NCBI RefSeq assembly: GCF_004010195.1
Contig: NC_057758.1
Coordinates: 917,998 to 981,997 of the forward strand
DNA: 64,000 bases
Source: Chiloscyllium plagiosum
Lineage: Eukaryota
Direction: 5' to 3'
This document shows, piece after piece, positions 1-58,789 of this stretch (its first letter is position 1; each line of letters opens with the position of its first letter). The notes beneath the pieces were generated by a model. The model saw only the letters and a list, made by a program, of their open reading frames with translations, was not told the origin of the DNA and made no database searches. A program made the translations under genes and the position numbers.

Positions 1-205
1 GTTATGGGTAGGTTCTTCACTCAGCGAGTCGTAAGTTCATGGAATGCCCTGCCAGTAGCAGTGGTGGACTCTCCCTCTTTATGGGCATTTAAGCGGGCAT
101 TGGATAGGTATATGGAGGATAGTGGGTTAGTATAGGTTAGGTGGGCTTGGATCGGCGCAACATCGAGGGCCAAAGGGCCTGTATTGTTCTATGTTCTATG
201 TTCTA
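1..205 (+). mobile_element. 3' end of CR1 (HER1-like) LINE
   Basis: Matches the 3' end of the young CR1 at 53170-53385 and ends in a (GTTCTAT)n tail. Confidence 0.85.
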
Positions 206-17749: not shown

Positions 17750-20260
17750 CACTGAATTCTGTGAACAGACCGCCTTTCCTTGCAAGCTGTGCAAACAATC
17801 TAATTCGGAAGAGTCAGGGAAAAACACAAGAGCAGTAGCAGTTTTTTGAACAGTAAAGGAATGGGAAAACAACTCCTTATGTGAAAAAGGGCTCGAACTG
17901 GTCACAAGCTGATTGTCATTGAGGTGAGATAAGGCTGAGCGAAGTATAGGATAAACAAACCATATGAATGATATTCGGGACCCTTGAACAAGGCATTTTT
18001 GTCAAGTGCATGTGGCCCGTCTGCAATATAGAGGCTAAAATTAATAAAGCTCAATTTTGGTTGCTCTTGCTAATAGTTGAGTCGAGTCAATTTAATTTCC
18101 ACGACAGTAAACTTGGGGGCTCATCTGGCACTCCGCGATTGGGTGAGATTCTGAGGATTCCCAGGAAGTGCAGGTGCCAGCACCTTGAAGGTCTTTCACT
18201 TCATCTCGAGTGCTGAGTTCGCCCTTTTGTATGAGAGGGATGTGAATCTGTGGATCGCCCCGGCGTCATTGTCCAAACTGAATAAGGTCGGGGTAAGAAT
18301 AGTGGCATAATTAATCCGATGTAGAGACTCATTCGATGAGAATGAAGGATCAGGAGAAGGGTTTGCGTGGTATTTGAGCAAAACCCAAGTGAAGGGGATT
18401 GCCGTCTCTTGAGTGTTTAAGAGACAGCAAGTTTAAGGGTGGTTTTAGACTTGGAACCACCACTGGCTCAGTTGGATTCGCCAAAGACATACTCGGTACA
18501 TGGTTTCTTGGGTTACACGCCCAATCCGAGAGGGGACCTCCGGAGTTAAAAATCAAGTAAAAGGGATAAAGATAATGTACCACAGAAAGAGACAGGAAAT
18601 GGAACACTTTTCCAGCAAGAACAGACAAGAGGGTGCACAGAGGAATTGGAATGGCCAACGAAAATACAGTACACGTTAAATAATTACGATCCAGCACTGT
18701 AAAGCAGTTAGAATTGTGGATGAAGGAATGTGGTTTTCCGGAGAGAGGAAGTTTTAGTAAAAGGCAGTTGGACATTTTGATATCGAGTTTGGAGGAGAGA
18801 GAGAAGGAGAAATGCAAGGGAAAAATAGAACCTGTGAATTGGAGTGCTTATAACATGTGGAAGGCTTAGGCTGATATCAGGGAAAGGAAATCTCAAGTAA
18901 AGGGTAGATCAAACAAACACCAGCGCACATGCAGACGTGCGCGGAAAACAACCAAACAAAGTTGTACAGTATCTTAATTCTGTTTCAGATCCTGATCTTG
19001 ATGACTGCCCTCCGAGACCTACAGCCCCCCTCCGAGATCCAGCTGGCGAAGGTACTACGTTAGCGGCCGCCGCTTCAGGGTCCACTGAATCACTGGTAGC
19101 ATCTCGTACCGGCAACATATTGGACCAAGAAGCCCAGGAGAAGTATAACTGGCCAACCGCAAATGTCCATGCCACAGTAGCCAACCCGCAAATGGAGCAG
19201 AACAGAGAATTTAATGCTTTTATTGCTGCGCTGGCGACCGCCTGGGAGGCATTCCCAGTGCGAATGGACATGACCAAAATTGCAATTTGTAAACAACGGG
19301 AACTTGAGACAGTGTCCCAGTACCTTACGCTTCTCACCCGACGACATAACGGCGGCAAAAATCACGCCATTTGAAGCACATCTGAGGATCAGTGGAATGA
19401 AGGCCGAAATAGGGAAGAAGATGTATTACCTGGGCCATGGAAAAGCAGAATTTCATAGAACAACATGTGATACATGTAGAAAAAATGCTAACCCAAGAGA
19501 AGGATAAGAGGAAATGAAAGATGGAACAGCAAGCACATAAGCCTGATGCAGATGGTGGCCCAGCCGTAGGAGGCAGGTGTTGCGAAAAAGAGAGAGGAAG
19601 ATGCGCTAGCATATGTAGATCTGGTGGGTACTTTGTTTGGGGAGCAATGGACCGTTGGGTGAGACAGTGCCAACACAGACAGCGTCAATTTGCCCAGAAG
19701 GCTGGAGAGCAGTGTGACTGACAGGGGAAGTCTGAGGTGGAGTTGTGCAGCTCATGAGGTACAGGTACGCCTCTTTCCTTTATGCTTGGCAACGAAGACT
19801 TGCTTATGCTAATCTCTTCTACTCACGTTACGGGCACTGAAACATGTCCCACCCCCATATTGAGCGCTGAGACTGCAGAGTGTGTACCATATATTCAGGA
19901 CAATAATGATGCATATAAGTCAATGCCTACCTTTATCTTATATGTGGAAGATACCTCAGTTACCTTTTTTGGTAAATACAGGATCATCCCTGAAAGGCTT
20001 AGTAGTGACAATGGGACACCATTTGCCAGTAATGCCCGACAGCAGATCTGTGATTATTTGGAAATAAACATGATACAGCACTGTGCCTACCACCCAGCGA
20101 GTGGTGGGGCAGTGGAAAGAGAAAATGCTACCTTAAAATATAAATTGACAAAATGTGAGGAACTCGGGGTGGCATGGACAAAAGCACTTCCAATTGTACT
20201 AATATATATGAGATCTAGGAAGAGCTAAACTCAGCTTGTTTGAGATTTTATTTGGCAGCG
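17750..20260 (+). mobile_element. Internally deleted class I (gamma/epsilon-like) endogenous retrovirus: LTR, PBS-Pro, gag and integrase remnants
   Basis: AATAAA at 18043; LTR end ...ACGACA near 18106; PBS TGGGGGCTCATCTGG at about 18114. Gag-like WMKECGFPERGSFS...WSAYNMWK, PTAP motif and degenerate Zn knuckle. Integrase core SSDNGTPF...HCAYHPASGGAVERENATLK...WTKALPIVL (ORF 19782-20228). Confidence 0.8.
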
Positions 20261-20269
20261 ATGAATTAT

Positions 20270-20630
20270 GTTTCCGCTTGAAATAGCCCACCGTTGGAAT
20301 ATTGTGTGCAGTTCTGATCGCCACAGTGCCAGCAGGATGAGGAGATTTTGGAAAGCGCTCAAGAATTGTTTAATAGGTTGCTAACTGAGGAGAGATTTGA
20401 CAAACTTGATTTGTTTTCACTTGCATGTGCCTGGATAAGCGGTGACATGATGGGCGTTACAAGATAATGAGAGGCATAGATTGATTAGACAACAGTCTTT
20501 TTCTCGGGTGGGAAATGTCAGTGACTAGTGAACAAAAGTTAAAAGTAATAGTAGCAACGATATGAGGGGCAGTATTCATGGGACGTAGATTAACTTGGTA
20601 AGGGCAGAATTTGTAACCTGCCCTCAGTTG
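20270..20630 (+). mobile_element. CR1 3' fragment
   Basis: Degenerate LEYCVQFW region and downstream ORF2 C-terminus. Confidence 0.65.
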
Positions 20631-20635
20631 CATTT

Positions 20636-20814
20636 TGAAAAATGTTTTGCTGGAAAAGCGCAGCAGGTCAGGCAACATCCAAGGAGCAGGAGAATCCACG
20701 TTTCGAGCATTGGTCCTTCTTCAGGAATCAGGATTCCTGATCGTCGAAACGTCGATTCTCCTGCTCCTTGGATGCTGCCTGACCTGCTGCGCTTTTCCAG
20801 CAACACATTTTTCA
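20636..20814. mobile_element. Fold-back (palindromic) Penelope-terminus mini-element with degenerate hammerhead motifs
   Basis: ~70-bp inverted arms plus inner hairpin TCAGGAATC-AG-GATTCCTGA; same sequence family as 23830-23915 and 34296-34503. Confidence 0.85.
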
Positions 20815-22439
20815 GTTTTGAGTCTCAAGTCAACTGAGTGAGCCTGAAGATCGCGTTTAGCTAAAGCTCATTGCTTACAACTTCGCTCAAGAATATTAGA
20901 CAAGATAGCGACTTTAGACAAGTCAGACAGTCAGTTAGAGGCAAATATTTAACAATTAAACATTGCTGAGCATTAAAAGCATTTAACTATCTGTAAAAAA
21001 TATACTTGGAACGGATAAAGAGACGGAGAGAGTGTGAGAGAGAGAGATAGACATGAAGGTCAAGACGGAATTTTAAAGAGGTGAGTAAGATGGAGGAAAG
21101 AGGAGAGGAGAACAATGAAGCAAAGGAATTGAGCTTTAAATAGTGCAATTGAAAATTTTGGGGGAACAGGGCAGAAAGACACAATGTCCCAGTCTTGTAA
21201 ATCTCTAGCCCTGGATGTATCCTGTTCTATCGCAATGGGTCGTTAGATACACCCATTTTATACAGTCGAGAAGAGATTGGCCCTGGGAATTCTAAACATT
21301 GAAGACTTGCTTTGGGCTGCCTCATGAAATATGCGATGACACACGAAAGCAGAATTCCTGTTGACTCTCATTGAACACTGCCCTTCAGTTGTCTAACCAG
21401 TCCTTTTATAACAGAAACAACACTCGGAGAAATCTCTGAAGGGAACAAATTTCATCAAATAGATTGTCGTCAGTTTTCTCAGACAGTCACAGAGATAGTC
21501 TAAGACAGAGAGTGACCGTATCACAATTAAAATAGTTGGTCACGTCCAGTGAGATAGAATTCTCATCTCGCTGGTGTTGAATATACCAAAAGGACAAGAT
21601 CCACTTGACCACAATACCAAAAAACTTCCAGTCATGGATGTATCGGTAACGATGGTGCTTATAAAAACAGGAAGTATTTGTGAACATGGTGTCTTGTTGT
21701 CAGACTGAGCACAAACTCCCTAAGATTGTGTTAAAGTCCAACAGCAGAATTTGGCACCCAAAGTTTCAACCACTACAAATTCTTCGTCCTACACTCTGCA
21801 CTCCACAAATTAATCCTATGCACATAATGTTCCATTTCACAAATCTTATGCCCTCCTCAGACATTGCACAATCTAATTTTACTGAACTCGAGAAGCATTT
21901 TGTGCCCACTCAAAAATATGGCACCCCCTTCAAATTTTCCCTTCCCCACAGTAATCCAGGCGAATAGATTGATCCCTGATCAATACTTGATTAAATTTCT
22001 CATGGGATGAAGACGTCGCTGGTCTGGCCAGCATTTATTGCTCTAATTGCCCAGTGGGGGTTAAGCGTCGAAAGATTCAGCTCTGGGTCACAGACAGGCC
22101 AGAACAGACAAGGATGATTGATTTTGACATTACTGAAACAATATGTGTTTTTCCAACAATCAGCAATGAATCTGCATTCATGGTTAGACACTGAATTTCA
22201 GATTTTCTATTGTTATGAAGTCAAATTTCATCAACTACGGAAATGGGATTTAAACCCGTGTTCCCAGAACATGATCTGGGTTTCTGGGTGCTGAGCCACC
22301 ATTACACCTTCATTTTTAGTAATATTTCCCAATCTATCATGGCCATCTTTTGGATCATACCATCGTGGCTTACTGTATTCAGTTCAGTAACTATGTCTCA
22401 GCATTAACTGGATCACTGTTCTCCTCGATGAAGATTTCT

Positions 22440-23680
22440 ATAATGCATTTATCAGGGACAAGTCATCCCTCACAAGCCTCATTGAATTCTTGAGGATGTG
22501 AGAAAACACGTTGATGAAGTTACAGCAGTGGATTTGGTGTATGTGGAGTCTATCTTGCGTGTGAAAACGGTCCGCATGATAGGTTAATTCAGAAAATAAA
22601 GAGGAATGGGATACAAGGAAACCTGTCTGGTTGGATACAGAAATAACTGGGCGATAAAGATAGATCTTGGTGGTATAAGGGAAGTATTTACCCTGGAGAG
22701 GTGTTCCAAAGCGAACGATTCTGAAACCTTTGCTCTTTGTGATATTTATAAATAACTTGTACAAGGAAGTTAAAGGATGGGTTAGTAAATTTGCCGATGA
22801 CACAAAGGTTGTTGTACTTGTTGGTAGTGTGGGGAGGTGTTGTAGTTTGCGATGAGACATTGGCAGGATGTAGAACTGGGCTGAGAAATGTCAGATGGAA
22901 TGCAACCTGGTATATTATGCAGCCATTCACTTTGATATAGTAAATTCGAATGCATAATACGGGGTTAATGGCAGAATTCATGGCAGTGTGAAGAAGCGAG
23001 GGATCTTGAGATCCATGCCCATGGATCCCTCGAAGTTGACAGCCAGGTTGATTAGGTTGTTCCGAAGGTTTCTGGTGTGTTAACTTTCATTAGCAGGGAG
23101 TTTGAGGTTCAGAGCCGCGAGGATATGTTGCAGCTCGATAGAGCCCTGGTTCGACCACACTTTGAATAATGTGTTCAGTTCTGGTCGCGACATTACGGGA
23201 AAGATGTAGAAGCTTTATAGAGGGGGTAGCGGAGACTCCTCAGGGTGCTGCCTGCACTGGAGCGCATGTCTGATTAAGAAAGGTTGAAGGAGCGAGGGAT
23301 TTTCTCATAAGAGCGAAAAAGGATGAGAGGTGACTTGATTCTGGTATACAATATAATGAGAATTATGGACAGTGTGGATAGACAGAAACATTTTCTCATG
23401 ACAGCGATATCCAAATCGAGGGGCACAGTATTAAAATAATTGGAGGGAGGTGTAGGGGAGGTGCCAGATCTTTGTTCTTTAATCAAAGAATATTGTGTGC
23501 ATGGAAGACACTGCTAGCAGTCCTTGTAGAGTCAGGTATATTAGGGATATTTCAGTGACTCTTGGATAAGCACATGGAAGTTCGTAGAATGAAGAGTATA
23601 CAGGTTAGTTTGATTTTAGAATTGGGTAATAATTCGGCTCAGCATCGAAGGCCGAAGGCTGTACTGTACTGTTCTATTTT
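22440..23680 (+). mobile_element. CR1 LINE, RT to 3' end, degraded
   Basis: SKFADDTKV (AGTAAATTTGCCGATGACACAAAG), CVQFWS, 3' tail GAAGGCCGAAGGCTGTACTG. Confidence 0.85.
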
Positions 23681-23814
23681 CACATTGTGGTCGCTAATTT
23701 TGACAGGCCCTCGAACACATGGATGGCAAATTCGTCCATTCTGATTCCCCAGTACCTAGTCTGGGATACCTCTTTTTCTCAAAGTTGCCTCAATATAACA
23801 GTCAACATATAACC

Positions 23815-24340
23815 TTAGTCTGGATTAGAGTGGTGCTGGAAAAACACAGCAGTGCAGGCAGCATCCGAGGAGCAGGAAAATCGACGTTTCGGACAAAAGC
23901 CCTTCATCAGGAATAGAGGCAGAGTGCCTGCAGGGTGGAGAGATAAATGAGAGGAGGGTGGGGGGTGGGGAGAAAGTAGCATAGTGTACAATAGGTGAAT
24001 GGGGGTAGGGTGGAAGGCGATAGGTTAGAGCAGAGGGTAGAGTGGATAGGTGGAAAGGAAGATAGGCAGGTGGGACAAGTCATGGGAACAGTGCTGAGCT
24101 GGAAGCTTGGAACTGTGGTGAGGCGGGGGAAAGGGAAATTAGGAAACTGGGGAAGTCCACTTTGATGCCCTGGAATTGAAGTATTCCGAGGCGGAAGATG
24201 AGGCGTTCTTCCTCCAGGCGGTGAAGGAGGCCCAGGACCTCCATGTCCTCGGCTGAATGGGAGGGGGAGTTGAAATGTTAGGCCACAGGATGGTGTGGTT
24301 GATTGGTGCTGGTGTCCCAGAGATGTTCCCTCAAGCGCTC
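23815..24340 (-). mobile_element. Penelope-like element 3' part (GIY-YIG endonuclease C-terminus and terminus)
   Basis: Minus strand HFNSPSHSAEDMEVLGLLH..RLEEERLIFRLG, pyrimidine-rich UTR, then the hammerhead motif. Confidence 0.8.
23878..23914 (-). ncRNA. Minimal hammerhead ribozyme motif
   Basis: AUUC CUGAUGA A GGGC UUUU GUCC GAAA CGUC GAUUU: conserved core, 4-bp stem II, palindromic ACGU stem III, GUC cleavage triplet. Confidence 0.7.
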
Positions 24341-24439
24341 TAGTTGAAGGCGCCCTAACGCGCTATGATAGTCAGATGGAGCGATGAAACTTATTGATAT
24401 CATTGTGTTGTTGTTATATTCACCACACGTAGAACCGCC

Positions 24440-26430
24440 AATCTCCGAGCACAATCCTACCACACATCTGTTTCATGTTCGAACACAACACTTTCACCAG
24501 TTCTGCATTTGAACATACAGAGTCGCCATGGGAACGAAACTGCATCCCGATATGCACAATTTCGAACAAGATTTCTTTGCTGCACAGTACTATACATCAG
24601 TTACATTTCTTCCTCTGAACCCATGATGAGGAGTCACTGCAGTAACTACACAGAGATATCAACACGTTTCATCCCAGTATCAGACTTACCATCGAGTACT
24701 CTTCAGTATCTGTCTCATTTGTGTCCATACGCATCTCTGTCAAGGACGGGCACCTTAGTACTTCACTCTACTGCAAACCGGTAGATAACCTGATGCTGCT
24801 GCACGTCTCTAGGTTCCACAATAAACATATTAAAACAGCCGTCCCCTGCAGACAAGGCCTGCACGTATACAGGATCTATTCAGATGACGAGGAACGTGAC
24901 AGATAACTAAAGGGGCTGAAGGACGCCCTCACAGGGCACGATGCACACCTCATCCTTCGCCAGTTCTGACGTATCACAGCGTGAAAGTGTAATGAACTCC
25001 GCAAGCGACAGATGTGGGATGCGACCGATTTGGTACACTTAATTGTCCAGTGCTTCCTGGGAGTTCAGAAACAACGTTATGCTCTTCACAGCCTGGAAAC
25101 ATATTATTGTTGAAGATGAGCACTTCTTCAAGGCCGTCCTACGCCTCTGCTTCTCCACCTAAAACAACCCCCAATCCTTAAACAGATCATTATTCGCAGA
25201 AAACTGCCCAACCTTCAGGGCAACATCCACCACTACATCGTTCAACCCTGCCAAGTTGTCCGCTGCAACTCGTGTTAGAGTGTCGACACGGATACTATCA
25301 TTACACATGCGGACATCACTCAGCATGTATGTGATAGGTATTCGTGTGACTCTGGCGACATTGTCTATCTCATACACTGCAGGCATGGCTGCCATGAGGC
25401 ACGGTGCATTGGCTAGACCAAGCAGACACTACAGCAACATATGAATGGACTGTGCATACCAATCGCCAGAGAGGGACATACCCACCCAATCAGTGATCAC
25501 TACAGAGGACAGGGATATTCGGCCTCGGATCTTCGGCTCAGCATTCTAAAGGTGGACTTCTGGATATGCAACAAGGCAGAGGGCCAAACAGAGGCTTATA
25601 GCCAAGTGTTGTAACGTTGAAGATGGCCTAAATCAGAATGTTAGATTCATGTCACACGACAGGTGACCCCATGGAGACTCATAAACACAGTCACTCAAAC
25701 ATATACACATGCATGGACACTTTTATATAATCACACAAACTCCAGCGGATGCTCTCTCTGAGTCAGATACACTAAGCACCCTGGGAGGCACAGGTGCGCA
25801 AGCACGCACTCACACTCACATGCAGACACTCATATCACGCACTCACAATATCTCTCTCATACACATCCAGACATACGCACACAAATGCACAGACACATAT
25901 AAATCTACGTGGTGATACTGAATTTGCAAAATTGTAATTGCGGATGCATTCTATTTTGTTAAAAATGCATACAATCTACAGGCAGTCAATGCAAGCAATC
26001 TATCCATGTGGCGTGGTATAAATTTCTACTTTAGAAATAGGACCAGTCTGACTCAAGATTGGAATACAGAGTCAGACAGAGTCAGACCTCACACCAGTTA
26101 ACTGTTCTTTTGTAAAAGCTTAAGTTATCTCGAGAATGTGAGATGAAAGAAGTTCTAGGATTTCCATATTAATGAACAGAAACTTGCAAATCATTCTAAA
26201 AGATGACAGACTTGAGGACAGCAAATGAGGTTAGTTCAATAGATCGTACCAGTTGCATACATAACACGGTGTTGCTTAGCTTTCAATTCTTTGCCGTATG
26301 ATCCTGAGCCACAAATATCTCATGGAGGAGCAGCGCTCAGAAAGCTGCTACTTCGAAGTAAACATCTTGTACTATAAACTGATGTTGTGTAATTTTTAAC
26401 TGTGTTCACTCAAGTCCAACATCAGCACCA
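24440..26430 (+). mobile_element. Penelope-like retroelement (RT thumb, GIY-YIG endonuclease, 3' UTR), degraded
   Basis: Reads LSTSLYCKPVDNL..., YRIYSDDEERD, YSCDSGDIVYLIHCRHGCHEARCIG*TKQTLQQHMNG; CA tract 25680-25900; degenerate terminus 26320-26430. Confidence 0.8.
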
Positions 26431-27499
26431 CTACTTAAATGTATGAGTTACCATATTACTTCTAAATATTGAAATAAGGCACCGACCCTAGACTATGCGA
26501 ATTAATGACATCTCAAGAAGTATAGTTTGAATTAATGCTTTGAAGAAGGTGAACGAATGAAGTTTTTCCTTGAAAAGAAATGTGAATAAATCTTTGAGAC
26601 TAATACATTATGTTTTCTGTCCAAAAAGAAAAATCATCAGTGCATGTGATAAATGTTTTGCAGTTGCCGAGAAGCACTTACAATATTGAAAGCACATCCA
26701 CAATGAAGTTTGAACAGGAATCAAACTTGTTGACCCAAGTCCAGTTCCGTCAAGCGGCACGAATTTAACGTTATGGCTGTTATGAATTTTCTGACTAACA
26801 AAGGGAAATGAGCAGTGTGTTTGTCACACATGTTTAGGAGGGCAGTAGTCTTTATGGCTTGGATGTTGAGAACGTTCCTGGTGGTCAGAGATCTAAACGA
26901 AACAAATCAGAATTATGTGAGCGAAGACCAGTAAACCAGAATACCGCATGTGGATGGTAGAATGTGTTGCGAGAATACGATTGGCTAAAGGCATAAATGC
27001 TATGTTGAAAATGAAGTCCAAGTTAGGTGTTTTAACTACCTGGAGTTAGTTGTGGGAGAATATAAAGTGTATTTGTTCTTCATTCATGGGTTGAGGTTGT
27101 CACTGACTGGGCCAGCATTTATCACCCATCGCCAATTACCCAAAATGTACTTGCGGTTCCAAAGTTCAGGAAATTGAAGTGACACAATGGATCAACTCTG
27201 GTTTATTGAATCGGGACAGTGGCGACTTTTGTGGTCGTATATTGTCGCTGAAATGAATGACCAAAGTACTTTTGCAACCCGACTTTATTGTTTAGTGCAT
27301 AAATTTGGACAACAAGAGAATGCGAGGGTAAACGAAGTAACTTGATCTTTGAAGCAGAGGATATGGATAAGATCCAAAATGAATAATTTGCATGCATCCA
27401 GGAGATGAATATGGAGGATGCTGAGATTTGTTTGGAACATACTAACATGCAGATAGGGCAGTGACATAATGTAGTAAATCTATCGGGAATGTTTCGCAC

Positions 27500-30296
27500 G
27501 CGATGAAACAAAGGGATCAGTTAAAGTGTGTCTGCTTTAACGGAAATAGTGTCAGAAACAAGAGTGGTGAACATAGAGCATGGATCGGTACATGGGTCTA
27601 CGATGTTATGGCCATAACGGAGAAGTGGGTTTCACGGGGGCACGAATTGTTGCTTGATGTTCCAGGATTTAGAACGTTTAAGAAGAGGAGGGTGGGTTGA
27701 AAATAGTGGAGGGGGTTTAACATTGCTAATCAGAGCGTCCATCACAGCTACAGAAACGGAGGTTGTTGAGGAAAGTTTGTCGACTGAGTCAGTATCGGTG
27801 GAAGTTAGGAACAGAAAGGGAACAGCCACCGCATTGGGGGTTATCTACAGACCACATAATAGCAGTAGAGAGATTGAATAACTCATTGACGGGCAGATTG
27901 TGGAAAAATGGAGATGTAGCACGGTTATTGTTTTGGGTGATTTCAACTTTCCCAATATCGATTGGAACCTACAAAGTGCAGATGGTTTGGATGGAACCGT
28001 TTTTGTCAGGTGTGTTCAGGAAGGTGTCCTAACGCAGTCTGTAGACAGACCGACGAAGGGAGAGGCCATTTTTGGATATCGTTCTCGGCAATGAGCCAGG
28101 ACAGGTGTCAGATCTAGCGGTGGGAAAACACTTTAGTGACCGTGATCACAACTGCCTCACATTTACCATAGCCTTGGAGATGGAAAGGAACAGTTACCAA
28201 GGGAAGATATTCAACTGGGGAAAAGGATATTATGACGCTACCAGACAGGAGTTGGGATTTACAGACTGGGAGCAATTGGAGACTATTTAAGGAGCAGTTG
28301 TTGCGAGTGATGCACGCATTTATATCTCTGAGACAGGTGAGAATGGTCAAGATTAAAGAACCTTGGATGACAAGAACAGAGGAGATTATAGTCAAAAAGA
28401 AGAAGGCAGTTTACATAAGTTGGAGGAAGCAAGGATCTCGGAGAGCTTTGGAGGAGTACCAGCTTGCTCGAAAAGAGCTCAGAAATGGATTGAGGAGAGC
28501 CAGGAGGGGCACGAAGAATAAGGGAGAACGCAAATGCATTTTACTCATACGTGAGGAATAAGAAACTGATATTGGAGAAGTCGATAGTAGTCATGATTCG
28601 GAGATGCCGGTGTTGGACTGGGGTGTACAAAGTTAAAAATCACACAACACCAGGTCATACCATATTTATACTAAGCTGCTCTGGGAAGCGAGATAGGAGG
28701 TTGCTAAGCCGCTGCTGAGGATCGTTTCCTCCTCACTTGCCACGGGAGTCGAACCAGAGGATTGGAAGGAGGCAAATGTAGCTCCTCTTTTTAAGAACGA
28801 CAATAGGGAAATCCCTGGCAAATACAGACCAGTCAGTCTTGCGTCTGTGATCGGATTTATGACTCTTTGGCAAAGCATAGTGTGATTAAAGGCAGTCAGC
28901 ATGGCCTTGTGAGGGGCAGGTCATGCCGTCCAAATCTCATTGAGTTCTTTGAGGAGGTGACAAGACAGGTCGACGAAGGCGAGCTGTGAATGTGGTGTAC
29001 ATGGACGTGTGCAAGGCATTTGGTAAGGTTTCTCATGGTAGGCTCATTCATAAAGTCCGGAAGTATAGGATACCGGGAGATTTTTCTATCTGGATTCAGA
29101 ACTGGTTTGCTGACAGAAGGCAGAGAGTTTTTATGGATGGAAAGTATTCTGCCAGGAGGACAGTCATCAGTGGGGTCCCACAGAGCTTTGTTCTTGGGCC
29201 TTTGCTCCTTTTCGTTTTTATATATATCTTGGATGAGGAGGTTGCGGGGTGGGGTTCGTAAATTTGCAGATGGCACGAAAGTTGGAGGTGCTGTTGATAG
29301 TATCGCGTGCTATTTCAGGCTAAAAATCACACAACACCAGGTTATAGTCCAACAGGTTTAATTGGAAGCACACTCGCTTTCGGAGCGACGCTCCTTCATC
29401 ACGTGTGCTTCCAATTAAACCTGTTGGACTATAACCTGGTGTTATGTGATTTTTAACTTTGTACACCCCAGTACAACACCAGCATCTCCGAATCATATTT
29501 CAGACTATCACGTGACATGGACAGGATGCAGAGCTCGGCTGAGAAATGGTACGTGCGAAGTGATGCATTTTGGAAGGTCTAAATCAAATGCTGAATATAG
29601 GATTAAATACAGGATTCTTGGCAGGGGGGGGGGGGGGGGGGGTGGAATAGAGGGACATGGATGTGGAAATACATAGATCCATCAAAGTTGCCACCCAAGT
29701 GGATAAGGTTGTTAAGAAAGTTTTGGCTTTCATTAACAGGGGGATCGAGTTTAAAAGCTGCGAGAATTGCTACAATTCTACAAGTCCCTGGTGAGACCAC
29801 ACGTGGAATATTGTGTCCAGTTCTGGTCGCCCTACTATAGGAAAGATACAGAGGCTTTGGAGAGAGTGCAAAGAAGGTTTACCAGGATGCTGCCTGGACT
29901 GGAGGGATTGGATTATGAAGAAAGTTTGAATAAGCTCGGACCTTTCTATCTGAAGATAAGGAGGAAGAGAGGAGACCTGATCGAGGTACACACGTTTCTG
30001 ACCGGATGGACAGAGTCAATAGCCAGAGACATTTCCTCAGTGCAGGATGCACTGGTACGAGGGGTCATAGGTTTGAGATAGTAGGAGAAAGTTATAGAGG
30101 AGAGTCAGAGGTAGTTTTCTTTACGCAGCCAGTTGGTAGTGGAAGCAGCGTCATTAGGGATATTTAAGCGACTGTTGGAAATGCGCATGGATAGCAGTAA
30201 TTTGAGGGATGTGTAAATTAATTTATTATGTTTTACGTTAGGATTAAACCTCGGCATAACGTCGTGGACCGAAGGGTCTGTTCTCTACTGTACTTT
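27500..30296 (+). mobile_element. CR1 LINE ORF2 (APE endonuclease and RT) with internal deletion and nested insertions
   Basis: LKCVCFNGNSVRNK..WIGTW.YDVMAITEKW, GDFNFPNIDW, GVPQSFVLGPLL, KFADGTKV, EYCVQFWSPYYRKD. Confidence 0.9.
29323..29495. mobile_element. Fold-back Penelope-terminus mini-element with hammerhead motif and 12-bp TSD
   Basis: Inverted arms 29323-29373 and 29403-29455; TSD TATTTCAG(G/A)CTA; minus strand UGAUGA A GGAGC GUC GCUCC GAAA. Confidence 0.85.

Positions 30297-30358
<62 letters not shown>
30297..30358 (+). repeat. (TCTA)n microsatellite at the LINE tail
   Basis: About 15 perfect units. Confidence 0.95.
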
Positions 30359-30514
30359 AATGGTGGCTCACAGTCCCAGTAAACCTGTTTTGAATCCTGC
30401 CTTAGGCGACTGTCGATGTGGAGTTTTGAGATGGGGTGTGCGTGAGCGTATGAGTGTGTGAGACATTGAATGTGGTCTTGTGTGAGCATGTGAGACAGAG
30501 AGAAAAAAAGTGCA

Positions 30515-30705
30515 TCGTGTAGTGGAGTCACCTGTAGTGTGACATAAACGCAAGGTCCAGCTGGAGGCATCCCCATGGCGACCGAATTTGTCTATGTGCT
30601 TCTGCTTGCCCACTCTGCTTTGTTGTGTATACTAACGTCTGCCTTGGAGGATGGTTAATTGAAGATCCAAGTGCAATTGTCCCTGAGCGTTGACGTATTC
30701 CCTAC
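30515..30705 (-). mobile_element. Penelope endonuclease C-terminal fragment
   Basis: Reverse-complement similarity to 25490-25680. Confidence 0.55.
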
Positions 30706-30709
30706 CAGA

Positions 30710-31195
30710 ATGGAAGCTTTGGAAAGGGTGCAGAGGAGATTTACTAGATGTTGCCTGGTATGGAGGGAAGATCTGACGAGGAAAGGCTGAAGGAGTTGAG
30801 ACAGTTTTCGTTAGAGAGAAGAAGGTTGAGAGTTGACTTAATAGAGACAAAAATAATAATAAGAGTGTTAGATAGGGTGGACAGGGAGAGCCTTTTTCCC
30901 CGAATGGTGACGGCGAGCACGAGGGGGCATAGCTTTAAATTGAGGGGAGATAGATATAGGACAGATATCAGAGGTAGTTTCTTTACTCAGAGAGTAGTAA
31001 GGGTATGGAATGTCGTGCGTGTAACGGTAGTAGATTCGCCAACTTTATGTATATTTAAGTAGTCATTGGATAACCATATGGACATACATGGAAAAGTGCA
31101 TGTTAAATCGGCTTCAGATTGGTATGACAGGTCAGTACAACATCGAAGGCCGAAGGGCCTGTACTGTGCTGTAATGTTCTGTGTTCTATATTCTA
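30710..31195 (+). mobile_element. CR1 3' end
   Basis: ORF 30748-31062 MLPGMEGRS...TRGHSFKLRGDRYRTDIRGSFFTQRVV plus tail. Confidence 0.85.
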
Positions 31196-31487
31196 ATTAT
31201 TTCTAACTCTTTCTTGATAACTTTCGATCTTTTTTCCCTTAACGTCTTTCTATGGCAGTTAATTTCACAGGTAGAAAGTTTTGAGGGTGTAGAAATATTT
31301 CCTCATCTCAGTCCGAAGTAGCCTACCGGCTATCCTTGGACTGTCAATGTTGGTTCTGATATGCCCAGTCCTCTTGCATATCGCTTGTCTACTGCTGTTA
31401 TCTCCCATGATTAGTGTAGGGATGGGGAAGACTGATCCACTTGATGAATCGATATGACGTTCTTCGTCCATGTTCCTGCATGTTTGT

Positions 31488-31759
31488 GGGCGGCACGGTG
31501 GCACACTGGTTAGCACTGCTGCCTCACAGCGCCAGAGACCCAGGTTTAATTCCCGCCTCAGGCGACTGACTGTGTGGAGTTTGCATGTTCTCCCCGTGTC
31601 TGCGTGGGTGTGCTCCGGTTTCCTTCCACAGTCCAAAGATGTGCAGGTCAGGTGAAAGGCGTAAATGTAGGGGTATGGGTGGGTTGCGCTTCGGCGGGGC
31701 GGTGTGGACTTGTTGGGCCGAAGGGCCTGTTTCCACACTGTAAGTAATCTAATCTAATC
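31488..31759 (+). mobile_element. HE1-like SINE
   Basis: A/B boxes and (TAATC)n tail. Confidence 0.9.
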
Positions 31760-33711
31760 CTGGTGAGTCATTATACATGCGAAGTTGTTTTGATTTTTCC
31801 TTTGAATTATTATTCTCACATATACCGAGGTGCACTGAGTGATTAAACAGAGTGATTAAACAGAGCAAACAATATAATACTATAGCAGCAGACAAGGTGC
31901 ACAAAGGTTGAGATCAACATCAAATTTAAAATTTTAGTGTTCCATTTCGACGTCCAATGACAAGGGTAAGAAACCATTCTTGAATCTGTTGTTTCGTGTG
32001 TTTAAGCTCTTNNNNNNNNNNNNNNNNNNNNNNNNNNNNNNNNNNNNNNNNNNNNNNNNNNNNNNNNNNNNNNNNNNNNNNNNNNNNNNNNNNNNNNNNN
32101 NNNNNNNNNNNNNNNNNNNNNNNNNNNNNNNNNNNNNNNNNNNNNNNNNNNNNNNNNNNNNNNNNNNNNNNNNNNNNNNNNNNNNNNNNNNNNNNNNNNN
32201 NNNNNNNNNNNNNNNNNNNNNNNNNNNNNNNNNNNNNNNNNNNNNNNNNNNNNNNNNNNNNNNNNNNNNNNNNNNNNNNNNNNNNNNNNNNNNNNNNNNN
32301 NNNNNNNNNNNNNNNNNNNNNNNNNNNNNNNNNNNNNNNNNNNNNNNNNNNNNNNNNNNNNNNNNNNNNNNNNNNNNNNNNNNNNNNNNNNNNNNNNNNN
32401 NNNNNNNNNNNNNNNNNNNNNNNNNNNNNNNNNNNNNNNNNNNNNNNNNNNNNNNNNNNNNNNNNNNNNNNNNNNNNNNNNNNNNNNNNNNNNNNNNNNN
32501 NNNNNNNNNNNGCATCCATTGTGTGCTTTCGAAATAATGCTGTTAAATTTTAATGTGTATTTTTAAATTAGGACGGTATATTGTTGTCGAGTTGGAGGCA
32601 GTTAACTAACATTTAAGAGAAAGAGGGGTTTAGAGTTCTGATTAGTTGTTTTTCACTGTTCACTGAGAGTGTTATGGAATAGATTGAAACTATTTTATTT
32701 AAATAGAGTAATTGAAGAATTCTCTGTCACTCATATCTTAACACATTACGAGCTTTTCTGGGCGTTGGTTCAATTAACAGAAGCGTTCACGGAATTGACA
32801 AAGAAGTTTGGGGGCTCGAGCCCGTGACTTCGGAGGGTTTGTATAGAGTTTGTTTGGCTGAGATCTGTCCAGTCTGCGACTTGGACAGATTTGAATAGAT
32901 GTGAATGTCCTAGATATTTAACTAAAGCACAGATGCGGCCATTTATTAAATTTTCGTTACTTCTGGTGACTAGAAGTAGTAGGAGAAGTACGAGAAGTAG
33001 TACTCGTTCCGTTACTAAATTAGGAGTAAAACAAATGGATCTTAAAATTGCGAAAGAGGTTATGGGATTTGAAGATGATTCTGAAACTTGCCAGGAACGT
33101 TTAGAAAGACAGAGAAAGGCCATACGTTTCGAATTTGCAACTAGTTTAGATGATGTTTAACCACGGACGAATATAAAGCTGAAATGATCAGTGAGTTAGT
33201 GTGTCAGAGAAACAGACAAGCACTTAAGTGTGTCAAAGAAACAGACAAGTGTAATAGATTTCTAAAAATGTAATCTACAAGAGAAGAAAATGGAGTTGGC
33301 AGATAAAGATAATGGAAAGAGAAGGAGAGAAAGAGAAAGAGAAAGAATGAGAAAGAAAAAAGGGAAAAAAGAGTGACAGACGAAGAGGAAAGACAGATAA
33401 AGATCTTAGCTGAGCAACGAGAGAGAGAGAAGGAAGAGAGGGAGAAACAGAGAGGAAGAGGGAGAGAAGAAAGAGAAAGGGAGAGAGAATTTGAACTTCC
33501 ATTGCGAATTAGTCAAGAAAGACAATTTAACAGTATGAAGATGACGTGAGAGGGTAGTGGTATGTAAAACTATGTTCAAACAGTGCCACAGTTTGATGAG
33601 AAAGATTTGGAAGCCTTCTTCATTTCAAATATTGACTAGACATATGGAGTGGTCAGCTGACTTATGAGCAATGATAGTTCAGACTAAGCTGATACATAGA
33701 ACTACTTAAGT

Positions 33712-34080
33712 ACAAAAGAACAAAGAACAAAGAAATTTTACAGGACGGGAACAGGCCCTTCAGCCCTCCATGTCTGAGCCGATCAAAATCTACTGTCTTA
33801 AGCTGTCGCTCAATTCCTAAGTATCTGTATCCCTCCGCTCCCCACCTACTCATGCATCGCTCCAGTTGCATCTTAAATGCATCTATTATGACTGCCTCTA
33901 CTACCTCTGCTGTTCCAGACATCCACCTTCCTCTGTGTAAAGTACTTGCCGCGCGTATCTGCCTTAAACGTTTCATCTCTCACCTTGAAAGCGTGACCTC
34001 TCGTTAGTGAATCCTTCACCCTCGGAAAACGTTTATCTCTATCTACTCTGTCTATACCCTTCATGCTTTTGTAAACCTCA
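33712..34080 (-). mobile_element. CR1 3' end inserted in Gypsy gag
   Basis: Minus strand FPRVKDSLTRGHAFKVR; (TTCTTTG)n tail at 33712-33735. Confidence 0.8.
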
Positions 34081-34295
34081 TGATTTGGAGATGCCGGTGT
34101 TCGACTGGGATGTACAAAGTTAAAAATCACACAACACCAGGTTATCATCCAACAGGTTTAATTGGAAGAACACTAGCTTTTGGAGACACTGCATGAATGT
34201 ATGTCAAACTCTGTTATCTCACTTTTTATATTATAATCAATCTAAACATCAGGTCATAGACAGGGAACACAGGGGGCTAACACCTTCAACATATT

Positions 34296-34503
34296 AGATA
34301 TGGAAATGTGTTGCTGGAAATGCGCAGCAGGTCAGGCAGCATCTAGGGAACAGGAGAATCGACGTTTCGGGCATTAGCCCTTCTTCAGGGCTAACGCCCG
34401 AAACGTCGATTCTCCTGTTCCCTAGATGCTGCCTGACCTGCTGCGCTTTTCCAGCAACACATTTCCATCTCTGATCTCCAGGATCTGCAGACCTCACTTT
34501 CTC
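34296..34503. mobile_element. Fold-back Penelope-terminus mini-element with hammerhead core and 15-bp TSD
   Basis: Near-perfect palindrome 34300-34468; TSD CACCTTCA(A/G)CATATT at 34281-34295 and 34504-34518; minus strand CUGAAGA A GGGC UAAU GCCC GAAA CGUC. Confidence 0.9.
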
Positions 34504-34727
34504 CACCTTCAGCATATTGGCTAGCTATCACCATTGTTAACAGCTAACCCGAGAATGCAACTTTAAAAAAAGGGTTTTGTGATTTACACACGCAAGAAGT
34601 GAAACTATCACTGTATTCTAACAATTAAAAGGCTTAACAGACAATCAATTCTTCAATGTATAATTTCAGTTACATCACACTGCAAATTTTACTATAGATT
34701 CTGTATTACGATCGAGCCCTCCACAAT

Positions 34728-34757
34728 CACCTGATGAAGGAGCTCCGAAAGCTAGTG
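34728..34757 (+). ncRNA. Minimal hammerhead ribozyme motif
   Basis: CAC CUGAUGA A GGA GC UCC GAAA GCUA GUG: stem I CAC/GUG, shortened stem II, palindromic AGCU, CUA cleavage triplet. Confidence 0.6.
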
Positions 34758-36519
34758 TGCTGGTGTTGTGTGATTTTTAACTTTGTAAACCTCAATCAAT
34801 ATAACTTAGTGGAACACAAAAAAATGACAATGCCGATGGTTTAAGAAAGGCTCTTCGAAAAGCTGTTTTCACTGCCAAAAGGTGGAACACGTAAAATCAA
34901 AACGCTGATCTTTAAAGAAACGTACTGCGGGAAAAGATGTTGTAAAAGAGGTTCACACAATGGTATTAGTCAAAGTTGGAAAGGAAACTCCAAGAAAAGT
35001 CGAGAAGCTGCAGGAGAGGGCACAGACTGGGCAGGCAATCAGTTTGGACACAGTGCCTGGTCTCTCAAAGACTGCACCTCTGTGGGTAACGTTTACTCAG
35101 AAAGAACGGGGGAGAAGGGAAAGAAGTTGTTATTTACAGAGAAACAGAATAAAATGATTCTCTAAAAGTAACAGATGGACTTATTTNNNNNNNNNNNNNN
35201 NNNNNNNNNNNNNNNNNNNNNNNNNNNNNNNNNNNNNNNNNNNNNNNNNNNNNNNNNNNNNNNNNNNNNNNNNNNNNNNNNNNNNNNNNNNNNNNNNNNN
35301 NNNNNNNNNNNNNNNNNNNNNNNNNNNNNNNNNNNNNNNNNNNNNNNNNNNNNNNNNNNNNNNNNNNNNNNNNNNNNNNNNNNNNNNNNNNNNNNNNNNN
35401 NNNNNNNNNNNNNNNNNNNNNNNNNNNNNNNNNNNNNNNNNNNNNNNNNNNNNNNNNNNNNNNNNNNNNNNNNNNNNNNNNNNNNNNNNNNNNNNNNNNN
35501 NNNNNNNNNNNNNNNNNNNNNNNNNNNNNNNNNNNNNNNNNNNNNNNNNNNNTCTACTCCGAAAAGGAGTCAGAATGTATTCCTGAGGATTCTTATCCTA
35601 AGACCAATGGCTTCTTAGTTTAGAGGTGACATAGGCAGAAGGGCAGCAGATTGTGTTGCCGGTGACATGCGGACAGGAAGTGTTATGGGTAGCACATGAT
35701 TTATTAGTAGGAGGTAATCGAAGTGTAAGGAAGACTCAGGTGAAGGTAAAATAAAATTCCAATGGCCTGGACTGCCATAAATGTTATACGTGCCAAATGG
35801 ATGATAAGCCACACGCAGTAATAAAACCAACATCTTTCCTGCCAATTCCCACATTCGAAGAACCTTTCACGTGGGTGATGAATCATTGTGCAGGCCTCCT
35901 TCCCAAAACTATACTTGAGAAAAACAAATCTGCTGACCATATTGAATGTGTCTTCCAGATTTCTATGAGGCAATTCTATTACGGAACATTAAAGGGAAAA
36001 GGGTTGTGGAGGAGTTCGTAGCTTTTTTTTATGCGGTAAGGGCAATCCCGAAAAGTTCAATCAGGCCAACGGTCCATTAAACTGAGCTGTTTAAGGAAAT
36101 CGTGGATAGCTTGGGCGTATAGCATTTTAAAGAAGTGCGTCATATCCTCAATCCCAAGGAGCTTTAGAAAGGTGGCATCTTTAAAACTCGGAATATTTCC
36201 TCGGGGATGATGTGCTAATTTTGTTACTAATGGTAGGAGATCCCTTTCGTCCAGATTCAGTGGGCCCTATGAAATTGAGAACAAATGAAGTCAGGTGAGC
36301 TATCTGGTAACGTTGCTGGATAGGGAGAACATTTTTTAAAAAAAGCTATCAGGCATGTGGTATGAATATCTTGAAACGATATTATAATACAGAGAAAGAA
36401 CTGAAGAAACAAGTGTTACTCACTGCACCGAAGAATGAGAAATGAAATCCAGACGTCCTGAAGTTTCATGTGTTTCAATATACGATAAACAACGAGTAAG
36501 TCCTTGATGAGTGGGATAG

Positions 36520-42366: not shown

Positions 42367-42403
42367 GCACTGATGAAGAGTGATCTAGACTCGAAACGTT
42401 AGC
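42367..42403 (+). ncRNA. Hammerhead-like motif in a short Penelope-derived terminus
   Basis: CUGAUGA A GAGU GAUCUAG ACUC GAAA CGUU: core and stem II intact, stem I weak. Confidence 0.5.
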
Positions 42404-42589
42404 GTACCCTCTGTCCACGGGTGCTGCCTGACCCATTTTAATTTTCAACATTTTTGCTCTGTGTTCAATACTGATTCAGCATATCAATAATTTACCTCTG
42501 CTCTCTCCTTTGTTAAATTATTTGAATTTACAGGCCCTTCTATGATGGGGATTTCCAGCTACATCTGGCATTTCAATTCCCTCACGAGG

Positions 42590-43852: not shown

Positions 43853-44112
43853 GATTAGATTAGATACAGTGTGGAAACAGGCCCTTCGGCCCAACAAGTC
43901 CACCGAAGCCGAGGCGCAACCCACCCATACCCCTACATTTACGCCTTTCACCTGACCTGCAGGACTGTGGAAGGAAACCGGAGCACCCGGAGGAAACCCA
44001 CGCAGACACGGGGAGAACATGCAAACTCCACACAGTCAGTCGCCTGGGAATTGAACCTGGGTCTCTGGCGCTGTGAGGCAGCAGTGCTAACCACTGTGCC
44101 ACCGTGCCGCCC
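43853..44112 (-). mobile_element. HE1-like SINE (duplicate of 31488-31759, sharing flanks)
   Basis: A/B boxes; flanks homologous to the 31.5 kb copy. Confidence 0.9.
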
Positions 44113-44409
44113 ACAAGCATGCAGGAACATGGACGAAGAACGTCATATCGATTCATCAAGTGGATCAGTCTTCCCCATCCCTGCACTAATCATGAGAGAT
44201 AACAGCAGTAGACAAGCGATATGCAAGAGGACTGGGCATAACAGATCCAACATTGACAGTCCAAGGATAGCCGGTAGGCTATTTCGGACTGAGATGAGGA
44301 AATATTTCTACATTTACAAAACTTTCTAACTGTGAAATTAACTGCCATAGAAAGAAGTTAAGGGAAAAAAAGATCGAAAGTTATCAAGAAAGAGTTAGAA
44401 ATAATTATA

Positions 44410-44935
44410 ACATAGAACACAGAACATTACAGCGCAGTACAGGCCCTTCGGCCTTCGATGTTGTACTGAACTGTCATACCAATCTGAAGCCGATTTAACA
44501 TGCACTATTCCATGTATGTCCATATGGTTATCCAATGACTCCTTAAATATACATAAAGTTGGCGAATCTACTACCGTTGCATGCACGACATTCCTCTGAG
44601 TAAAGAAACTACCTCTGATATCTATCTCCCCTCAATTTAAAGCTATGCCCCCTCGTGCTCGCCGTCACCATTCGGGGAAAAAGGCTCTACCTGTCCACCC
44701 TATCTAACCCTCTTATTATTATATATGTCTCTATTAAGTCAACTCTCAACCTTCTTCTCTCTAACGAAAACTGTCTCAAGTCCTTCAGCCTTTCCTCGTA
44801 AGATCTTCCCTCCATACCAGGCAACATCGAGTAAATCTCCTCTGCACCCTTTCCAAAGCTTCCACATCTTTCTTATAATGCGTTGACCAGAACTGTACAA
44901 AATACTGCAAGTGCGGCCGCACCAGAGCTTTGTAC
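44410..44935 (-). mobile_element. CR1 3' end
   Basis: Reverse complement of 30710-31195, extending further 5'. Confidence 0.85.
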
Positions 44936-54725: not shown

Positions 54726-54789
54726 TCTAACATTTTAGGCATTGAAAGAAAACATTCTAATCAGCCTCTAACTCGACAGTTAACTCCCG

Positions 54790-58256: not shown

Positions 58257-58789
58257 GCCTGGGTAGTCGTATTTAATAAAAAAAAACAAATTAGATGCAT
58301 ATGAACAAAGATCAGTGAACTAGAAGGTCGTAATCGGATTGGCAGTCTGTGTTCAGAGAATACAATTGAAAAAAAAACATGATTATCATGGTGCAGATAA
58401 AATTCAAGTGAGTTACTTCATCGACATGGAGCTTGATGCAGCAGAACTGAAATTTAACTTATTCTGCGTTCGTTCATGCGATTGCATTTGTCACTGGCTG
58501 GGCTGGCATTTCATGCGGTCACTATAGTATGTAAACTTAAGGAAATTGAAACTAGGCCATGGATCCACTCTCGCTTATTGAAATGGATGAAGCGGAATGC
58601 AATTATTTTATAGTCGGGCATGATAGCTGAATATTAAAGGAGTGATCAAAATACATTTGTTACCTGACTTTGTAATTTCATGCAAAATTCTTGACACCAA
58701 TGCGAAGAGATGAAACTCGCTTGAATAGGACTCATGCTAAGAAGGATTGATGCAAGTAACACGTTGAGGTGTGGTACATTAGGTAAATG

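Follow-up and report, generated by a model that had tools for sequence, protein, structure and literature searches.

Three short fold-back sequences in a 64,000-nucleotide window of the Chiloscyllium plagiosum genome (the window being the whole stretch of DNA analysed) are, on sequence grounds, stubs or minimal insertions of two families of Neptune-type Penelope-like retrotransposons (PLEs). It is likely that such hairpins arise from a pair of cDNAs, both primed by the target, that reach the capped 5' end of the element's RNA just upstream of a hammerhead ribozyme, run off it and join head-to-head. By extrapolation from a 1.35 Mb sample the genome holds about 190,000 of them, and the stubs constitute a very large natural record of the points at which cDNA synthesis starts and stops.

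Structure of the three hairpins

Elements 1 (20636-20814), 2 (29323-29495) and 3 (34296-34503) are the only fold-backs in the window with a spacer below 200 nt (Table 1). The initial annotation had described them as near-perfect hairpins from two sequence families and both points hold: arm identity is 95-98%, the RNA fold z-scores are -18.0, -17.0 and -22.6 with 0/200 equally stable shuffles for each of the three, and elements 1 and 3 belong to family A and element 2 to family B. Counted from the C of CUGANGA as position 0, the inverted arms stop at -4 (20728), +1 (29401) and -1/+2 (34389), and thus the fold-back centre lies at or beside this core, as had been stated. The two TSDs of 12-15 bp that had been reported were also recovered, at elements 2 and 3 (12 and 15 bp), each with one mismatch.

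Table 1. Features of the hairpins and neighbouring copies in the window
Feature	Position	Strand	Details
Element 1, inverted tail-less arm, family A	20639..20728	-	+85 to -4; damaged hammerhead, CUGAAGA from 20724
Element 1, junction	20729..20744	.	untemplated base opposite the -4 end, element strand reads G
Element 1, direct arm, also tail-less	20745..20814	+	+19 to +88
Element 1, TSD candidate	20633-20638 / 20816-20821		6 bp only
Element 2, left TSD	29311..29322	+	12 bp, 1 mismatch
Element 2, inverted tail-less arm, family B	29323..29401	-	about +80 to +1
Element 2, direct arm with tail	29403..29495	+	+29 to +121; start is the exact predicted ribozyme cut
Element 2, right TSD	29496..29507	+	
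Element 3, left TSD	34281..34295	+	15 bp, 1 mismatch; within family-B pLTR
Element 3, inverted tail-less arm, family A	34296..34389	-	+92 to -1/+2; CUGAAGA from 34388
Element 3, direct arm with tail	34390..34503	+	+7/+10 to +123; junction microhomology 3 nt
Element 3, right TSD	34504..34518	+	
Family-B host fold-back, longer direct arm	34068..34794	+	element 3 inserted into it; hammerhead core at 34731
Host fold-back TSD	34068-34080 / 34782-34794		13 bp
Longer 5'-truncated family-A copy	23811..24357	-	-467 to +98; shows upstream pLTR; hammerhead core intact at 23910

In the junction of element 1, after the untemplated base, comes a brief second copy of 5'-terminal sequence, which likewise has a G in front of it. 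At -5 the template has C or T in all 75 of the long arms that have a base there. The earlier claim that the termini bear hammerheads holds for the two families, but a reading of the sequences finds a complete ribozyme in none of the three window elements. Element 1 has a damaged helix II and a changed cut-site base, element 2 is without C3, and element 3 lacks most of the 5' strand of helix I, its inverted arm having an intact core and helix II. No hammerhead model was matched in an Rfam scan of the window, which returned only a chance miRNA hit.

Parent elements

The proposed Penelope origin is borne out, as the termini of both families continue upstream into adjoining ORFs with RT and GIY-YIG domains. 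The parent is laid out as a single ORF with RT and C-terminal GIY-YIG, upstream of the terminus. One frame at locus L210 matches both RVT_1 (E 3e-10) and GIY-YIG (E 2e-4) in Pfam, with weaker matches in five others. Pfam matches were absent or irrelevant in 3/9 longer frames, five decayed fragments matched 0 families, and no intact full-length ORF was recovered. The ORFs contain the YIDD motif; DKG is present in P0003, and the CCHH residues, a Cys pair within the GIY-YIG motif and a downstream His, in P0001 and P0002 (both motifs as defined in the accessible part of PMC8557442). P0001 and P0002 also have a CX4CxxC linker between RT and EN, which agrees with the Neptune pattern CX2-5CxxC, a type also given for Nematis-type linkers in the same portion of that paper. 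Locus L166 has the order ORF end, pLTR, tail, ORF start, i.e. a partial tandem, which applies to the A2-type subfamily only.

The core boxes, helix II, the minimal helix III and the short helix I of a minimal type-I hammerhead are all found in the family profiles and long copies, about 165 nt before the ORF start. Self-cleavage is predicted, and a small spike of arm ends lies at the predicted cut; the ribozyme fold is weak (z -0.7).

Census of hairpin pairs

A systematic sample of 1.4 Mb on contigs C1-C14 (1,347,216 non-N bases, small contigs left out) contains 341 arms, and close pairs are head-to-head in 73 cases versus tail-to-tail in 3. The typical layout consists of a target duplication, an inverted arm without the ~35-nt tail, the junction, a tailed direct arm and the second duplication. 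One tailed and one tail-less arm occur in 64/73 pairs, TSDs of 8-17 bp flank 51/73, and the 3' ends fall at two sites about 35 nt apart. This architecture of inverted terminus, one-sided tail and TSD is already published; a shark-specific literature search found nothing on these repeats. The two arms of a pair share subfamily variants, with 10/303 sites discordant compared to 0.32 between elements. The formation of a hairpin from two different RNAs is mostly rejected on these shared variants, family B being without diagnostic columns. The ~190,000 perfect hairpins may be a source of double-stranded RNA.

Arm ends and the putative start site

The 5' ends of the arms show a roughly tenfold or greater enrichment within the 12 nt that precede CUGANGA, some 30 nt upstream of the predicted cut. 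The bin 0..-12 has 5.29 ends per 100 nt at risk in family A (67/133) and 5.75 in family B (23/42), compared with 0.18-0.58 (A) and 0.08-0.62 (B) in bins outside +10..-30, and with 0.32 (A) and 0.26 (B) in the cut-site bin. Unpaired arms stop at the same place (43/94 in A, 12/24 in B). HMM mapping masks cut-site starts through the helix II palindrome; exact remapping by split alignment puts 57/120 (A) and 40/74 (B) ends in -12..0. The ends are scattered over about +10 to -12 and not at one base, with a modal end at -4 in family A and -8 in family B, and independent contigs have many joints at one base, 4463, which equals -4. A few head-to-tail joints were also seen in other runs (10 contigs).

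Simulated uniform truncations lack the peak (39 true versus 45 called of 582 in A; 3 versus 7 of 116 in B), and an artefact of an unknown subfamily was ruled out by this simulation and an upstream-continuation search.

The modal ends carry an untemplated G that neighbouring positions lack. The local count is too small (8 G versus 5 A in family A; 4 G versus 1 T in family B), and genome-wide patterns were therefore used. Before the -4 start of family A, G occurs 10,476 times versus 5,197 for A, a G share of 0.67 seen against 0.41 expected. Counts made by hand on the first 100 rows listed, which were not drawn at random, gave 72 G and 28 A at -4 in family A, or 48 G and 25 A minus the rows explained by the inverted arm (p 2e-5), and 76/100 G at -8 in family B against 26 expected (p 2e-25). 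Controls one base in, likewise the first listed rows, gave 19/100 and 31/100 against 29 expected. According to the available part of PMC4859970, an untemplated G at full-length 5' ends is a cap signature in L1/SVA. The extra G sits on the sense strand and therefore points to a sense, capped template, against the proposal of antisense self-priming.

Promoter-like motifs lie at matching distances. TATAAA is found at -36..-40 in 25/29 long family-B copies, about 30 nt above the modal end; family A is without a clear TATA box and has an initiator-like TCATTCC at -6..0 in 15/28 long copies. Copies of the ORF start also open at this site: of the 23 loci, 5 do so at -2 to -11, 3 lie at +8/+9 and 1 runs far upstream. 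A start pile-up was not seen in the raw RNA run, a poly(A) single-cell library.

Formation of the hairpins

It is proposed that the element's capped RNA is reverse transcribed from both nicked strands of the target, and that RT starts at the two 3' sites, in analogy to what the anole element does in vitro. The two short cDNAs would run off the RNA 5' end upstream of the ribozyme, the modal end being the putative capped transcription start, and would be joined through microhomology and short re-copying. The variants that the arms share would follow from two uses of a single RNA, but also from self-copying or a later conversion. For the most part the ribozyme just lies next to the junction, because it sits 4-8 nt inside the RNA, close to the cap. 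The stubs suggest that it cuts only a minority of templates, and the ~3-4% of arm ends at the cut site probably reflect such templates. The geometry is not universal, since the start of D. virilis Penelope (nt 371, in the section available of PMC2377424) is well upstream of the ribozyme region (PMC4209133, likewise consulted in part).

The initial annotation had tied the inversion point to the ribozyme, which stands in that the breakpoints cluster nearby with the RNA end as their probable cause, but not in that the cut supplies the main end. Cleavage making the template 5' end and thereby fixing the junction is very improbable in general and as the main route is refuted, holding for a minor class only. 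Element 2 has a direct arm starting exactly at the cut, and 4/120 family-A arm ends fall exactly at +28 (1/74 at the cut in family B), a spike over the 3 ends across 12 neighbouring positions (Poisson p 1e-4 to 3e-3). Most arms however include the core upstream of the cut, the peak is ~30 nt upstream, and genome-wide 538 cut-site matches compare with 11,097 at -4, for patterns of differing length. Among the first 100 listed cut-site matches G precedes 86 and C/T 14, an apparent excess, but many of these rows are junctions with microhomology, minor internal deletions or templated copies that carry mutations. It is also unlikely that RT instead stalls at a folded or protein-bound ribozyme and adds the G at the stall as an ordinary untemplated base rather than by copying the cap. 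The steady rise of ends across the ribozyme (+23 to -12), the anole protein's assistance in ribozyme folding (PMC11167929) and the RNA reads without start pile-up would agree with stalling, but a polymerase at -4 is already past the whole motif, the fold is weak, and the excess of G is limited to a single position in each family, which differs (-4 versus -8) in keeping with initiator and TATA spacing.

Snap-back, in which one cDNA reaches the RNA end, folds and copies itself into the inverted arm, is comparably unlikely, and in its simple form as suggested earlier it is unsupported because a self-copying cDNA cannot give a longer tail-less arm. The tail-less arm reaches further 5' in 32/64 pairs (17/45 by exact remapping), it begins at the second site where unpaired copies also end, and the extra G sits on the sense strand. 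On the other side stand the shared variants of the arms, the pairs in which the tailed arm is longer 5' (19/64, or 13/45 by exact remapping) and the self-priming interpretation given to palindromic junctions in the accessible part of PMC3846280, where a related antisense idea is put forward; snap-back could be the source of a minority of copies. That the hairpins form a non-autonomous family, transcribed and re-inserted as a unit, had been suggested as well and is likewise very improbable. A recurring junction is seen in ~12/100 of the -4 rows and ~20/100 of the control rows (first listed rows), element 3 and locus L002 have a common junction, and raw RNA reads contain fold-back joints (17 reads; 13 reads). 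Yet all 73 sampled junctions differ, which excludes one amplifying mini-element, the recurring junction spans several helix-II loop variants and was therefore formed repeatedly, and the inverted end is without an apparent promoter. The fixed structure of a SINE or MITE at many loci was not found either, with distinct junctions, lengths of 126-1293 bp and TSDs of 8-17 bp. Assembly chimeras, conceivable in an assembly rich in gaps (the sample's first 1 Mb contains 40,741 N), have a negligible probability given the TSDs in 51/73 pairs, the consistent tail asymmetry and the untemplated G. The arms moreover differ by 2-5%, and opposite-strand joints also occur in other public runs.

A possible strong-stop-like step

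Minus-strand strong-stop DNA of LTR retroelements starts from a tRNA primer, and their termini follow the order U3-R-U5. Priming here would likewise lie 90-130 nt downstream of the putative capped start, and in family B the TATA box, the start, the signal and site of polyadenylation and the priming sites follow one another in an order that resembles U3-R-U5. In family B, A tails at +57/+60 occur in 379+460 reads and a poly(A) signal at +38..45 in 25/29 copies; both priming sites lie downstream of these tails, which hints at a strong-stop step like that of LTR elements. In family A the poly(A) signal is absent in 26/28 copies, with no tail pile-up among the loose ends listed. The primer here differs in being nicked target DNA and not tRNA, and the products integrate directly. 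An LTR-type tRNA primer with integrase is not indicated; because TSDs vary and the parent encodes GIY-YIG, the likeness is at most one of working like strong-stop, not of membership.

It is tentatively suggested, as a possibility open to considerable doubt, that the ~190,000 hairpins represent jumps that failed, on both strands of the target. A jump scar (cap-G or indel) at the start site of long arms was found in 0/75 (A) and 0/61 (B). Annealing-based strand transfer need not leave a scar. PLE RTs are the closest relatives of telomerase (PMC8557442, part available), and a jump step, if true, would therefore bear on the origin of terminal repeats.

Comparison with known systems

L1 twin priming yields two cDNAs from separate stretches of the RNA, whereas here both derive from one and the same terminal 90-130 nt and start at fixed internal sites. 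The systems are alike in priming from both target strands, an inverted 5' piece, small junction changes and the untemplated G at full-length 5' ends (PMC4859970, in the portion available).

Non-LTR retrozymes, as far as the accessible text describes them (bioRxiv 10.64898/2026.07.22.740005), are also non-coding, hammerhead-bearing and derived from PLE pLTRs, but are head-to-tail tandems with a ribozyme per unit. The shark elements are single head-to-head pairs with mostly incomplete ribozymes, and not head-to-tail units with complete ones.

The metazoan PLE minimal hammerheads, in the available sections of PMC4209133, share CUGANGA, the extra base before helix II, the short helix I, and GAAA with a palindromic two-base helix III, and include many solitary motifs, some on opposite strands 100-700 bp apart. 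Helix II differs in having 4-5 bp here, and cleavage with circular templates is proposed there, whereas most ends here are upstream of the cut.

Published EN+ PLE insertions (PMC8557442; Adineta Pen2a, PMC3846280; both seen in part) have an inverted pLTR, a one-sided 30-40 bp tail and a TSD. They resemble the shark hairpins in that the terminus is inverted head-to-head, only one arm has the tail, the TSD measures about 8-17 bp, the junction is palindromic and the parent encodes RT and C-terminal GIY-YIG. The unit here differs in being cut down to about 200 bp, in being a dominant product (146/341 arms are in close pairs) and in having its junction tied to a G-marked 5' end. As to mechanism, the accessible parts of both papers either prefer antisense self-priming or take no side.

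A further parallel is the Anolis Poseidon PAc element. Its RT starts in vitro at two internal sites, equal to the tail, that lie near the ORF start and downstream of the hammerhead; both target strands are nicked and extended, and ribozyme cleavage is not required (PMC11167929). The shark families share the two sites ~35 nt apart, matching the tail and downstream of the hammerhead, but are Neptune-type rather than Poseidon, and their ORF does not start inside the ribozyme as it does in PAc. The main text of PMC11167929, as far as available, is silent on caps, inverted products and the 5' ends of cDNAs. The stubs provide exact coordinates for tests in this existing in vitro system, and their G-marked ends offer a testable clue to how PLEs, a poorly understood class, are copied.

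Window hairpins and their parent elements

The three near-perfect hairpins claimed in the initial annotation are real, being the sole short-spacer fold-backs recovered by a window-wide search and folding with a stability far above that of shuffled sequences. Each joins an inverted and a direct arm of a hammerhead-bearing terminus (pLTR) from one of two Penelope-like element (PLE) families, A and B. Two are flanked by target-site duplications (TSDs), one of 12 bp and one of 15 bp and each with a single mismatch, in keeping with the 12-15 bp first noted, and the fold-back centre lies at or beside the CUGANGA core in all three, as had been described; a complete ribozyme is kept in none of them. 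Coordinates within elements are counted from the C of the CUGANGA box (position 0), and a reading of the sequence by the minimal-hammerhead layout in PMC4209133 predicts cleavage before +28 for family A and, for family B, before +29.

Features of the window and of related loci (L-numbers denote other genomic loci)
Feature	Position	Observations
Element 1	20636-20814	Family A; TSD candidate of 6 bp only
Element 2	29323-29495	Family B; the single exact +29 family-B end; lies within 28700-29700, a decayed RT frame of LINE type
Element 3	34296-34503	Family A; nested in a larger family-B fold-back, itself with a 13-bp TSD
Independent family-A insertions	34281-34518; L203:4590-4740	Shared insertion point in the family-B pLTR (about -200 to -230); possible target preference, two cases only
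Reading frame beside element 1	about 19800-20400	Decayed, integrase-like by motif
Inverted pair	30711-31554 / 44046-44864	~800 bp, 96-97% identity, 12.5 kb apart
Hammerhead-type terminus	42370-42435 (+)	Different helix II; resembles an older family-A relative
Nested inverted duplication	53847-63743	~10 kb across, N gaps inside; three arm pairs, 480-660 bp, 95-97% identity
Complex A-type insertion	L009:2270-2860	Inverted arm begins inside the ORF leader, followed by short tandem tail-region re-copies

Parent elements were traced by pursuing shared sequence upstream from each terminus, which led to decayed ORFs with very many relatives in the genome. Pfam detects RVT_1 and/or GIY-YIG in six of the nine longer frames, and the translations carry DKG and YIDD motifs, CCHH residues and a CX4CxxC linker, features that PMC8557442 assigns to Neptune-type EN+ PLEs. 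The tandem locus L166 has the order ORF end, pLTR, tail (a ~35-nt 3' extension usually found on the direct arm) and ORF start, and thus the tail belongs to the 5' leader directly ahead of the ORF, whose ATG lies 38 nt downstream.

Genome-wide population

A systematic sample of 140 stretches of 10 kb, spaced 10 Mb apart along contigs C1-C14 (1,347,216 non-N bases), was mapped with profiles made from natural copies. It contains 73 head-to-head pairs, comprising 146 of 341 arms, and three tail-to-tail pairs; the density of 54 pairs per Mb extrapolates to ~190,000 in the 3.56-Gb genome. One tailed and one tail-less arm are combined in 64 of the 73 pairs (both tailed in 3, both tail-less in 5), TSDs of 8-17 bp (mode 14-15) accompany 51, and arm 3' ends form two peaks, at about +85-99 and about +120-129. 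All 73 junctions differ, which speaks against an amplifying mini-element with identical breakpoints at many loci.

Arm ends and the ribozyme

Breakpoints in the systematic sample are variable and far from uniform, clustering at 0 to -12. After exclusion of low-scoring arms, leaving 192 A and 60 B arms that match well, ends per 100 nt at risk reach 5.29 (A) and 5.75 (B) in this bin. The rate falls to 1.3-1.9 in the bins on either side and to 0.08-0.62 in the rest, the values around the predicted cut being 0.32 (A) and 0.26 (B). Unpaired arms also stop there (43/94 A, 12/24 B), so the peak is not created by junction microhomology, and uniformly truncated held-out copies mapped without such a bias in simulation. 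Split-alignment remapping of 97 short fold-backs from systematic and targeted loci showed that the interval from -12 to 0 takes in 57/120 arm ends of family A (modes -3/-4) and 40/74 of family B (modes -8/-9 to -2), and also uncovered a small sharp cut-site class of four A ends exactly at +28, one B end exactly at +29 and three within one base. Genome-wide, 538 matches to the cut-site pattern compare with 11,097 for -4, the patterns being unequal in length. The proposed tie between inversion point and ribozyme therefore survives mainly as proximity: ends cluster beside the core but are rare at the predicted cut.

Separately, about 10 of the 100 cut-site-pattern matches listed show a precise internal deletion that skips helix II, joining the first core box to post-cut sequence via 2-3 nt of microhomology.

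Signals of a probable RNA start

It is quite likely that the junction marks a capped RNA start, and not mainly a ribozyme cut or a self-amplifying family. The template base ahead of the start is C or T in family A (-4) and C in family B (-8), and the base preceding the A start genome-wide is G in 10,476 cases vs A in 5,197. By hand count of the first 100 matches listed, G precedes -4 in 72 (48 G vs 25 A once rows attributable to an inverted arm, 24 with G and 3 with A, are excluded) and -8 in 76 (55/79 without 21 removed rows), whereas controls one base further in, again the first 100 listed each, give 19 and 31 vs 29 expected. Untemplated G at the 5' ends of L1 and SVA is an accepted sign of cap copying (PMC4859970). 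Family B has TATAAA 28-32 nt upstream of -8 in 25/29 long copies. An initiator-like TCATTCC lies at the family-A site in 15/28 long copies. Among 23 ORF-start loci, 8 have no adjoining terminus match and 15 have a terminus, with 5' ends at -2, -11, -4 (with G), -2, -6, -36, +8, +9, +9, +30, +31, +37, +62 and +87 and one extending far upstream. Many joints in contigs from other runs fall on the same -4 base, and some junctions, that of element 1 among them, hold short re-copied pieces of the 5' end; the raw RNA run and these contigs gave no direct start-site evidence in reads.

Origin of the two arms and of full-length copies

Snap-back, in which self-copying makes the inverted arm, had been suggested as the hairpin origin, but it is unable to give pairs whose tail-less arm reaches further 5'. 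Such pairs make up 32 of 64 asymmetric pairs at a threshold of at least 5 nt (tailed arm further in 19, level in 13) and 17 of 45 under exact mapping (tailed arm in 13). Subfamily variants are discordant between the arms of a hairpin in 10/303 cases, the fraction between elements being 0.32, and both arms therefore share a source, probably one RNA. Twin priming, whereby both nicked target strands would prime and the cDNAs then be end-joined, would be the simplest account.

RNA data come from one raw poly(A) single-cell run of a possibly related organism. In it, non-genomic A tails are attached to family-B sense transcripts at +57 (379 reads) and +60 (460 reads), 12-15 nt past a poly(A) signal found in 25/29 long copies; both positions fall downstream of the ribozyme and upstream of the two priming sites. 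In family A the signal is absent from 26/28 long copies and A tails were not seen among the listed ends. Should ORF mRNAs end at these positions, initiation by RT would be restricted to the vicinity of the cap and the ORF could be copied only after a jump. Such an LTR-like strong-stop scheme would rebuild the pseudo-LTR, a step described as unexplained in PMC2377424. The model is put forward tentatively, as a possibility somewhat short of even. Host transcripts that make use of a pLTR signal may account for the tails, and long arms (75 A, 61 B) contain no start-site scar, which is against the jump or neutral. Opposite-strand joints in the raw reads (17, 14 and 13 reads) are possibly library artefacts.

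In the public sequencing run X12, ten contigs contain the exact -4..+125 unit repeated head to tail (L250:4592/4463), which would fit jumps from the cap to a new priming site, and 25 contain tail-to-tail joints between two RT start sites (L250:4551/4592).

Comparison with known systems

The head-to-head architecture with one-sided tail and TSD is already published. In the sources covered, including PMC12910113 and the retrozyme preprint, no PLE junction is tied to a capped start or strong-stop cDNA; subscription papers, repeat-database reports and older Penelope reviews fell largely outside this coverage, so precedent in print is possible. Twin priming with end joining is distinct from the mechanism put forward in PMC3846280, antisense self-priming. 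In the anole element (PMC11167929), nicking and extension take place on both target strands, and the tail is defined by two RT start sites, which the two arm 3'-end peaks found here match. The hairpins are real and abundant, and amount to a minimal form of an insertion type already known from PLEs.
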